From: Patescibacteria group bacterium | GTDB lineage: Bacteria; Patescibacteriota; Patescibacteriia; Patescibacteriales; GWC2-42-12 | NCBI GenBank assembly: GCA_028707005.1 | Contig: JAQTVB010000002.1 | Span: forward strand, 121-64,120 | Length of the DNA: 64,000 nt | Direction: 5' to 3' | Notes under the pieces: generated by a model | Seen by the model: only the letters and a program-made list of their open reading frames with translations | Databases searched by the model: none | What the model was told of the DNA's origin: nothing | Part shown: positions 55,340-55,743 of the stretch, piece after piece | Position numbering within the stretch: position 1 is the stretch's first letter | Layout of the letters: each line of letters starts with the position of its first letter | Translations under genes and position numbers: made by a program

Positions 55340-55404
55340 GTCGCCTAACGTATCGGGATATCCGTAGTTTTTGCGACCGACGGAAGCAAAAATTAGGGCG
55401 GAGC
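55340..55404. repeat. attC-like site 2, left half (AAC core plus inner box) with a local degenerate closing stem
   Basis: gtcgCCTAACgtatCGGGATATCCG. The matching inner box CGGATATCCCG lies 310 bp away at 55677-55687. Confidence 0.5.
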
Positions 55405-55420
55405 AAAAAATATTTTAAAT

Positions 55421-55642
55421 TTATTTTAACCCCGCGATGATAACAGCTACTATTGAAACGACAAGAGCAAGTATAGATAACCATTTCTGGAAACCAAGTT
55501 GATGTTGTGCCATCTTTGTCTGATTAATTGTAGCTTCAAGCTGAAATACTTCCGCAGAGGTTGACCACTCTCCACACTTGGAACAAGCATATTTTCCGAC
55601 TGGCGTTTTTTTCCATTCATGATTACAGTTGTTTATTATCAT
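55421..55642 (-). CDS. small zinc-ribbon-like protein with a C-terminal TM helix
   Basis: 73 aa. Contains CNHEW...CSKCGEW and a hydrophobic tail. It is bounded by a perfect 24-nt inverted repeat (55405-55428 / 55644-55667). Confidence 0.45.
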
Positions 55643-55675
55643 ATAAAATAAATTTAAAATATTTTTTAAGCGAAG

Positions 55676-55743
55676 CCGGATATCCCGTGTTATACGTCCC
55701 GCAGGGTCGGAGCGAAGCGGAACCGGATATGCCGTGTTAGGCG
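55676..55743. repeat. two tandem attC-like right halves (inner box plus GTT core)
   Basis: CCGGATATCCCGtGTTATACg followed by CCGGATATGCCGtGTTAGGCg. Confidence 0.5.

Follow-up and report, generated by a model that had tools for sequence, protein, structure and literature searches.

Integron recombination sites are regarded as non-coding hairpins of small size (57-141 bp), and the tools that search for them impose a length limit. The attC bottom strand is characterised by greater stability and a GAA apex (PMC5027507), and the variable regions of natural class 1 attC sites measure 3-100 nucleotides (nt) (PMC7439510). Two types of element, the group IIC-attC introns and the IS1111-attC insertion sequences, insert into attC sites (PMC3001079). 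The present analysis concerns a stretch of 64,000 nt from a Patescibacteria group bacterium (assembly GCA_028707005.1, contig JAQTVB010000002.1), hereafter the window, and in particular its site 2 (55343-55742), a 400-base hairpin with a complete small protein gene within the loop. With a probability of about 0.55, this unit represents one oversized attC-type hairpin in an integron-like Patescibacteria array, the variable arm of which holds a gene for a protein of 73 residues. In the literature searched, no paper was found on integrons or attC sites in Patescibacteria.

The sites of the window resemble integron attC sites in having an outer R helix with AAC/GTT, an inner complementary L helix of variable sequence, an unpaired spacer and a variable terminal region, as well as a more stable antisense strand and GAA-type apices. 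As in the arrays of sedentary chromosomal integrons and of clusters of attC sites lacking integron integrases (CALIN clusters), the accessory genes are co-oriented and each is followed by a site. Related loci share with integrons a divergent tyrosine recombinase, an attI-like site and a breakpoint G|TT. In contrast to the 3-100 nt of class 1 attC sites, the distance between the L boxes is 312 nt in site 2 and 479 nt in a second large hairpin, site 6, and these variable regions hold whole genes. Unlike classical attC sites, moreover, the present ones form a three-way junction, and their R helix extends outward into the cassette body. In the attP hairpin of the CTX phage, two inverted half sites mimic a Xer core site, and one strand is exchanged. 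A recombinase of a Xer-like family is also found beside the sites in the relatives studied here, but the phage has a single attachment site, with no cassette array and no gene in the loop.

Like attC sites that contain a group IIC-attC intron or an IS1111-attC element, site 2 holds extra DNA with an open reading frame (ORF). Those elements encode a reverse transcriptase and a ribozyme, or a DEDD transposase, measure 1-2 kb and occur in many near-identical copies, whereas the cargo of site 2 is a gene for a 73-residue membrane protein with no Pfam or Rfam match, which is unrepeated and co-inherited with its site. The statement in the initial annotation of the window that no equivalent has been described is therefore too broad, given the known attC-inserting elements (PMC3001079), but the cargo of site 2 is indeed neither a group IIC-attC intron nor an IS1111-attC element.

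Overall structure of site 2

In the fold of site 2 (Table 1), the outer R box GTTAGGC (55736-55742) pairs perfectly, over 7 nt, with GCCTAAC (55343-55349), and the inner L box pairs with 55354-55364. The left half comprises CCTAAC-gtat-CGGGATATCCG (55344-55364); its spacer of 4 nt against 1 nt in the other arm is an asymmetry common to all strict-format sites of the array. Because 8 of the 11 L-box bases (GGATATCC) are self-palindromic, the 11-nt box match is weaker than it appears. The pairing is nevertheless convincing, because it follows a family format (AAC-4 nt-box...box-1 nt-GTT) that is found in the array only and because the boxes covary in orthologous units. The initial annotation placed the half sites (55344-55364 and 55677-55695), the ORF of 73 codons and the inverted repeat of 24 nt correctly, but it overlooked a second right half at 55724-55742. 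Since GTTAGGC at 55736-55742 is the partner of GCCTAAC, the unit does not end at the inner right half but spans 55343-55742.

The second right half results from a 47-nt tandem duplication (family D1) of one half. In the closest relative, L006 (labels of this type denote fetched loci), there is a single half, which joins GCCTAAC with GGGATATCC and thus combines the outer R box and the inner L box of the window; the doubled half of the window is therefore a local duplication. An independent Logan assembly of the same genome (L084) has an identical sequence, duplication included, so that the structure of site 2 is not an assembly artefact. Two Logan contigs of this genome (L084 1-31 and L085 2575-2605) end with a 26-nt overlap exactly within the outer duplicated half, and a repeat or a population variant may break the contigs at that point.

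Several smaller elements of site 2 recur elsewhere. The short sites, as well as L090, L072 and L001, contain an arm homologous to the local hairpin at 55362-55398, the linker motif belongs to a class (GCGAAGC, GCGTAGC) that is present in other sites, and the ACATC flank beside the R'' box is also found in other sites of the window and in L001, L006, L088, L090 and L091.

Conservation of the unit in other genomes

Ten contexts of the ORF were read, the window included, and the gene-in-hairpin unit recurs in at least 9 contexts other than the window. Complete units, with the order R''-L''-clamp-ORF-clamp-arm-L'-R' (the clamp being the 24-nt repeat), are present in the window, in L001 (68% protein identity) and in L090 (38%). 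L006, L008, L088 and L091 retain the upstream half site and the upstream repeat arm, L072 retains the arm and the half site of the downstream side together with the small hairpin, and L010 contains neither half sites nor repeat. The L boxes differ among the window, L001 and L090, yet they stay perfectly complementary. Seven of the 11 pairs of the L helix change on both sides and 97% of the cells are paired, compared to 27-47% in slid controls, and none of 500 shuffles reaches the covariation score. The fold of each of the three complete units contains R, L, small-arm and clamp stems, the z-scores ranging from -4.1 to -6.6. The nesting of the ORF within an attC-like hairpin, as proposed in the initial annotation, is thus borne out by three complete units with compensating L boxes, all of which fold as predicted.

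In pairwise comparisons, the homology between loci extends from ACATC and the R'' box as far as the R' box, and the flanking genes are unrelated. The window and L090 share 84% identity over the non-coding 3' part and 56% over the ORF. The half site lies 7-10 nt from the repeat in 8 of the 10 loci and diverges along with the ORF, and the sister pairs window/L006, L001/L088 and L090/L091 have similar half sites. The ORF with its clamp aligns exactly where the short sites carry a small hairpin. Because the whole hairpin-plus-gene recurs in other Patescibacteria, hairpin and gene form a heritable unit and do not represent a transposon that jumped into a loop. These observations support a gene inside an attC-like hairpin as a recurrent, selected architecture.

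An insertion had been suggested in the initial annotation, in the form of a second layer of mobility by modules bounded by terminal inverted repeats. The segment 55405-55667 would then be a non-autonomous element, similar to a miniature inverted-repeat transposable element (MITE), and would have entered an existing attC site by way of its single-stranded loop. It has the perfect terminal repeats of typical length (24 nt) and the small size (263 bp) of a MITE, and similar direct motifs of 7-9 nt are present on both sides (GCGGAGC and GCGAAGC in the window, GGCTCCGCC twice in L090). Short sites with the L boxes of L090 hold other content at the same position, and the Logan contigs of the same genome break beside the unit. 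Unlike MITEs, the segment occurs as a single copy: neither the window nor 596 Gb of genomes nor viral contigs contain a second pair of the repeat, with other cargo or with none. Its repeat is gene-specific and overlaps the coding sequence, and no transposase is present. Other cargo has unrelated clamps, the homology between loci continues beyond the repeats as far as the R boxes, the ORF and the half site diverge together, and similar stems bracket ordinary cassette genes between sites. A target duplication was rejected for GCGGAGC and GCGAAGC, which belong to the site, because short sites have these motifs around their small arm. We regard an inserted element as improbable and the proposed mobility layer as unsupported by these data; growth of the hairpins by capture of cargo at the apex, which the initial annotation also raised, is conceivable as an ancient origin.

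The inverted repeat and the encoded protein

The inverted repeat at 55405-55428 and 55644-55667 is perfect (24/24) and consists of A and T only. It is the sole such pair in the window, even when 3 mismatches are allowed, and none is expected from shuffles. One arm stops 1 nt before the ATG of the ORF, the other takes in the last two codons as well as the stop, and the 24-bp stem closes a loop of 215 nt. The stem is nearly invariant in 8 loci, in which 20 of the 24 pairs never vary and one T-A pair is replaced by a compensating C-G pair, while the ORF identity drops to 37%.

A scan of 596 Gb of genomes with the 22-mer core of the repeat gives 66 loci, with one match each and mostly in AT-rich genomes. 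Only L072 and L074 among these also encode a homologue of the ORF, and in seven scan loci checked no partner arm is present beyond the unit of L074. The same 22-mer lies ahead of gene starts in unrelated Patescibacteria loci. A sigma-70 promoter pair was rejected as an explanation of the repeat, as a consensus scan performs no better than on shuffles.

The encoded protein contains an N-terminal Cys/His knuckle (C6, H8, C20, C23) and a C-terminal transmembrane helix, and it matches no Pfam family above the cut-off. The ratio of nonsynonymous to synonymous substitutions (dN/dS) of the ORF is ∼0.08 with respect to L006, and synonymous sites are saturated with respect to most other loci, from which it follows that the ORF is a real gene. 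Its relatives are few and all come from Patescibacteria metagenomes; viral contigs contain neither a relative of the ORF nor a match to the repeat plus linker. Exact-protein look-ups with the small ORF, the nitroreductase and a 143-residue protein yield short Logan contigs of the same genome only, and a look-up with the tRNA-binding-domain protein gives no match.

A perfect 24-nt inverted repeat around ∼215 bp is the usual signature sought for invertons, and this match raises the question of a phase-variable segment in which the small gene is flipped. The orientation of the ORF with respect to half sites and neighbours is the same in all ten contexts, and no invertase or other recombinase is found in the window. 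Because the arms hold the start context and the stop codon, inversion would merely switch the whole gene to the other strand. Inversion and chance are both unlikely explanations, an inverton being the least credible of the readings considered here.

The cassette array and its sites

From 53.9 kb to the end of the window, the minus strand carries accessory genes, with ∼13 genes over 53.9-63.2 kb and 7 sites among them. According to Pfam, they encode two tRNA-binding-domain proteins (tRNA_bind), a nitroreductase, two Fic proteins, a NUDIX protein, a NAPRTase and several unknowns. A format scan of the window finds the strict format solely in the array at 54.9-63.5 kb, and the 53 kb of housekeeping genes on the plus strand contain no such site. 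Along the direction of the genes, the sites have the format xxxTAAC, 1-2 nt, 11-nt box, variable region, complementary box, 4-5 nt, GTTAxxx. AAC/GTT is invariant in 9/9 aligned sites, and the short sites fold into a three-way junction with two small arms each. Rfam, applied to 53-64 kb, gives no family for the sites and no match except for a tRNA-like gene in site 6.

In 10 of 11 sites, the more stable fold is that of the strand antisense to the cassette genes (p = 0.006), and the apex motifs GCGAAGC, GCGGAGC and GCGTAGC sit on this strand. The spacers measure 4-5 nt against 1-2 nt, and on the antisense strand the longer one falls on the AAC arm. These indications conflict: the spacer asymmetry points to the gene-sense strand as the recombined strand, whereas folding energy, GAA apices and gene orientation point to the antisense strand. 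We adopt the antisense strand as the putative recombined strand, in agreement with L035 and L095.

Two other interpretations of the sites were rejected. The halves of site 2 cannot be parts of two ordinary neighbouring sites, since no R''-L'' half exists downstream of the ORF and no L'-R' half upstream. Neither are the sites double-stranded inverted recombination targets, since the 18-nt interval of site 1 is incapable of inversion and the box sequence is particular to each pair.

The array contains further features. A degenerate site at 57831-57985 has an intact left half and a decayed right half, and includes, antisense to the cassettes, a perfect TTGACA (57902-57907) and TATAAT (57924-57929), 16 nt apart, followed by terminator-like hairpins; it may encode a small RNA. 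The two Fic genes have upstream of them (57465-57499 and 60195-60280) short repeats, direct or inverted, namely three copies of attcgcgcaa and ttagaataagga-type motifs, with an operator-like appearance. A conserved hairpin element of ∼70 nt, AAGGAGTTTTGGG...GAATTCACCCCTT...CCCAAAAC, lies 3' of the stop codons of cassette genes in different Patescibacteria. At 63695-64000, a G+C-rich ORF of unlike composition, preceded by TTGACT/TTAAAT, leaves the window on the plus strand. It has no Pfam match, and it occupies the expected place of an integrase but is unlike an integrase.

Integron-like loci in related genomes

In L035, L093 and L095-97, a tyrosine recombinase is located divergently beside the sequence ATAACTT|GTT and arrays with sites of the window type. 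In L035, a locus of a Parcubacteria metagenome-assembled genome obtained as a by-product of the 22-mer scan, ATAACTT-GTTAGGC lies divergently beside the recombinase, together with a gene and a site in the format of the window sites; L095-97, from Falkowbacteria, and L093 contain several cassettes. Upstream, L035 and L093 are identical up to GTT, and directly after it they are unrelated. Judged by its sequence, this breakpoint is a classical cassette junction. The L boxes of the first site (GTGATAACCG) are identical between L035 and L095. The recombinase, with a length of 278-286 residues, passes the NCBIfam model NF040815 ('tyrosine recombinase/integron integrase'; XerA/IntI) with 247.6 bits at a cut-off of 220.

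Other cargo hairpins and gene-bracketing stems

Site 6 shows the same nesting as site 2, as the initial annotation had stated. It has perfect 12-nt boxes, clamp stems and a tRNA-like gene, and the plan is shared by a third hairpin. In L008 (1442-1851), an unrelated ORF for a secreted or membrane protein of 81 residues lies between ACCTAAC-a-CGTTTTATCCG and CGGATAAAACG-gtaac-GTTGCGA, and it has its own 24-nt A/T clamp, which overlaps the stop codon. Each of the three cargoes thus bears a different clamp.

Within site 6, a consensus-like promoter (TTGACA at 62409-62414, TATATT at 62431-62436), antisense to the cassettes, drives a short RNA, of which bases 62441-62465 are 84% complementary to 62575-62599, on the anticodon-arm side of the tRNA-like gene. 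This gene of 87 nt is assigned to Ile-GAT by ARAGORN and scores 44.1 bits with the tRNA-Sec family of Rfam, under the cut-off of 47.

Comparable stems bracket ordinary cassette genes or gene pairs between the sites. They begin at the stop codon or close to it and extend to the vicinity of the ATG, and they often merge with the R boxes without a break. Similar brackets surround cassette genes in L095, L035, L008 and L001. As site 6, L008 and ordinary cassette genes are likewise bracketed, the 24-nt repeat of site 2 is one case of a general rule of such arrays, by which coding segments are looped out between complementary flanks.

Table 1. Coordinates of site 2, of the other hairpins and stems in the window and of the related loci.
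Feature	Coordinates	Strand	Remarks
R box GCCTAAC	55343-55349	+	5' arm on + strand; R' box GTTAGGC in cassette-gene sense
Unpaired 4-nt spacer gtat	55350-55353	+	Opposite the 1-nt spacer of the other arm
L box CGGGATATCCG	55354-55364	+	Perfect 11-nt complement of 55677-55687
Second arm of variable region, local hairpin TTTTTGC...GCAAAAA	55362-55398	+	Repeat-pair scan and fold
Linker GCGGAGC, GNA mini-hairpin motif	55398-55404	+	Read directly
Clamp arm 1, 24-nt A/T-only inverted repeat	55405-55428	+	Includes last two codons and stop codon of the ORF
73-residue gene	55421-55642	-	Encodes Cys/His knuckle and transmembrane helix
Clamp arm 2, 24-nt A/T-only inverted repeat	55644-55667	+	In gene sense, ends 1 nt 5' of the ATG
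Linker GCGAAGC, GAA mini-hairpin motif	55670-55676	+	Read directly
Inner right half: L box CGGATATCCCG, t, R box GTTATAC	55677-55695	+	Sequence and format scan
Tandem duplication, second copy	55715-55739	+	First copy 55668-55692; 88% identity over 25 nt
Outer right half: CGGATATGCCG, t, GTTAGGC	55724-55742	+	Outer boundary of the unit
Conserved flank GATGT (gene sense ACATC)	55743-55747	+	Adjoins the R box
tRNA_bind bracket	54948-54976 / 55321-55349		29 nt, continuous with R boxes
Nitroreductase bracket	55747-55762 / 56298-56313	+	16-nt perfect stem; score 16, background 8.3 +/- 2.1
NUDIX bracket	58430-58451 / 58836-58857		22 nt, one mismatch
NAPRTase+Fic pair, first bracket	58955-58978 / 61815-61838		24 nt
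NAPRTase+Fic pair, second bracket	59005-59030 / 61770-61795		26 nt
Hairpin element of ∼70 nt, window	59032-59088
Hairpin element of ∼70 nt, L095	about 4975-4895, 3400-3330 and 2125-2055	-	Three copies
Site 6, cargo-bearing hairpin of the same plan	62251-62768	+	12-nt L boxes, 27-nt and 20-nt clamps, promoter, tRNA-like gene
Site 6, perfect 12-nt boxes	62257-62268 / 62748-62759
Site 6, first clamp stem	62330-62356 / 62717-62743
Site 6, second clamp stem	62373-62392 / 62686-62705
Site 6, tRNA-like gene	62556-62643
Integron-like platform, L035	3305-4829
Integron-like platform, L093	8280-10861
Integron-like platform, L095	1560-8677

The general occurrence of these stems bears on the main rival explanation, a role in RNA. 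The 24-nt repeat and the other brackets would then pair the 5' leader with the 3' end of cassette transcripts, as an RNase III-type processing site, as a closed end that confers stability or as a lock that controls translation at the start codon, and the attC-like halves would be no more than the cassette site around them. In the RNase III stems around 16S and 23S rRNA, complementary 5' and 3' flanks loop the gene out. The present stems resemble them in that complementary sequences lie directly 5' and 3' of the gene, with arms that abut the ATG and overlap the stop codon. Similar stems are found at the NUDIX, nitroreductase, tRNA_bind and NAPRTase+Fic genes and in L095, L035, L008 and L001, and housekeeping genes seldom have such brackets (1 of 45, against 4 of 13 in the cassette array; p = 0.007). 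The invariance of the 24-nt sequence would fit a leader or promoter constraint, as would the 22-mer ahead of gene starts in unrelated loci, and an RNase III gene is found in a related genome. Unlike the rRNA stems, however, which act at the RNA level on structural RNA genes, the present stems are continuous with recombination boxes, and the hairpins of the sites fold better on the antisense strand, which is not the co-transcribed one (10 of 11 sites, with 9 against 3 G.T wobbles). The between-site brackets, continuous with the R boxes, resemble extensions of a recombination stem, and in every complete unit the clamp stacks into the L-box junction. A role in RNA as the primary explanation is on balance doubtful, and it may coexist with a role in DNA.

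Assessment of the attC assignment

The assignment of site 2 as an attC-type hairpin has to be weighed against a number of observations. With respect to the site itself, both strands of site 2 fold equally well, and the L helices are perfect and bulge-free in 6 of 7 window sites, without the extrahelical bases that classical attC sites have near L'', on the arm facing the AAC of the recombined bottom strand, the asymmetry residing in the spacer instead. With respect to the clamp, one repeat arm persists without the other in L091 and L072, and the near invariance of the 24-nt stem is more than a purely structural stem would need to keep. Comparable stems also bracket genes outside any site, e.g. 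the NUDIX gene, and clamping for site folding therefore cannot be the sole role of these stems. No empty/filled or excision/insertion polymorphism of site 2, such as the uninterrupted version for which the initial annotation had proposed a search, was found, the exact-protein look-ups having yielded short contigs of the same genome only. With respect to the enzyme, the window contains no tyrosine recombinase (tblastn, E <= 10, with IntI1 and XerD queries), the array extending beyond the window. In contrast to an integron integrase, the recombinase of the related loci is short and XerA-like, and its score of 223 with TIGR02249 is below the 265 required by that integron-integrase model. Its family is ubiquitous in Patescibacteria, with >5000 homologues, and it looks like a general Patescibacteria Xer-type enzyme. 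Because the recombinase is short, belongs to a very large family and resembles such a general enzyme, the array is best called integron-like, its membership of the classical integron family being incomplete.

Proposed mode of action

In site 2, the R boxes (GCCTAAC/GTTAGGC) and L boxes (CGGGATATCCG/CGGATATCCCG) build the stem and the variable region forms the three-way junction, one arm of which is a short hairpin and the other an extended arm that houses the complete gene. We infer that recombination would involve single-stranded DNA, as may arise during replication or DNA uptake, and that a recombinase of the kind found in the related loci would act on it. In this state, the perfect 24-bp A/T stem at the base of the arm would serve folding as a clamp, looping the gene out and joining both halves of the site despite the loop of 215 nt, so that the recombinase could still recognise it. 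Such a clamp has a rationale, because under replicative conditions a long variable region can cost an attC site up to 4 logs of recombination (PMC8946536). As a module, hairpin and gene are passed on together and re-used downstream of varying cassette genes across genomes.

That the stem hardly varies points to a further constraint on it. The clamp arm before the ATG probably doubles as an expression signal of the gene, either a leader or a promoter, which would account for the conservation of its sequence and not merely of its pairing. The position of the 22-mer before gene starts elsewhere and the persistence of the upstream arm alone in L091 are consistent with such a role.

Implications for cassette systems

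The interest of these results lies mainly in genes inside a recombination hairpin, in the clamp rule and in the fact that a single attC module with a gene is used again behind unrelated genes. Search tools would miss sites of 400-520 bp with a protein gene or a tRNA-like gene inside, and such sites widen the concept of a cassette. The result places an integron-like platform in the Candidate Phyla Radiation. A design rule by which a stem clamps each looped-out gene would bear on how single-stranded sites can fold despite long loops and on the association of genes with attC sites.

More tentatively, Patescibacteria may possess an integron-like cassette system with a short Xer/IntI-like recombinase in which all coding segments are looped out, a recombination hairpin can carry protein or RNA genes under gene-specific clamps, and one module can be coupled to unrelated upstream genes. 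If this holds, the gene-bearing units, in view of the coupling of the same module to unrelated upstream genes across genomes, could be snapshots of attC sites and genes in the course of becoming joined, and would bear on the question of how cassettes originate.

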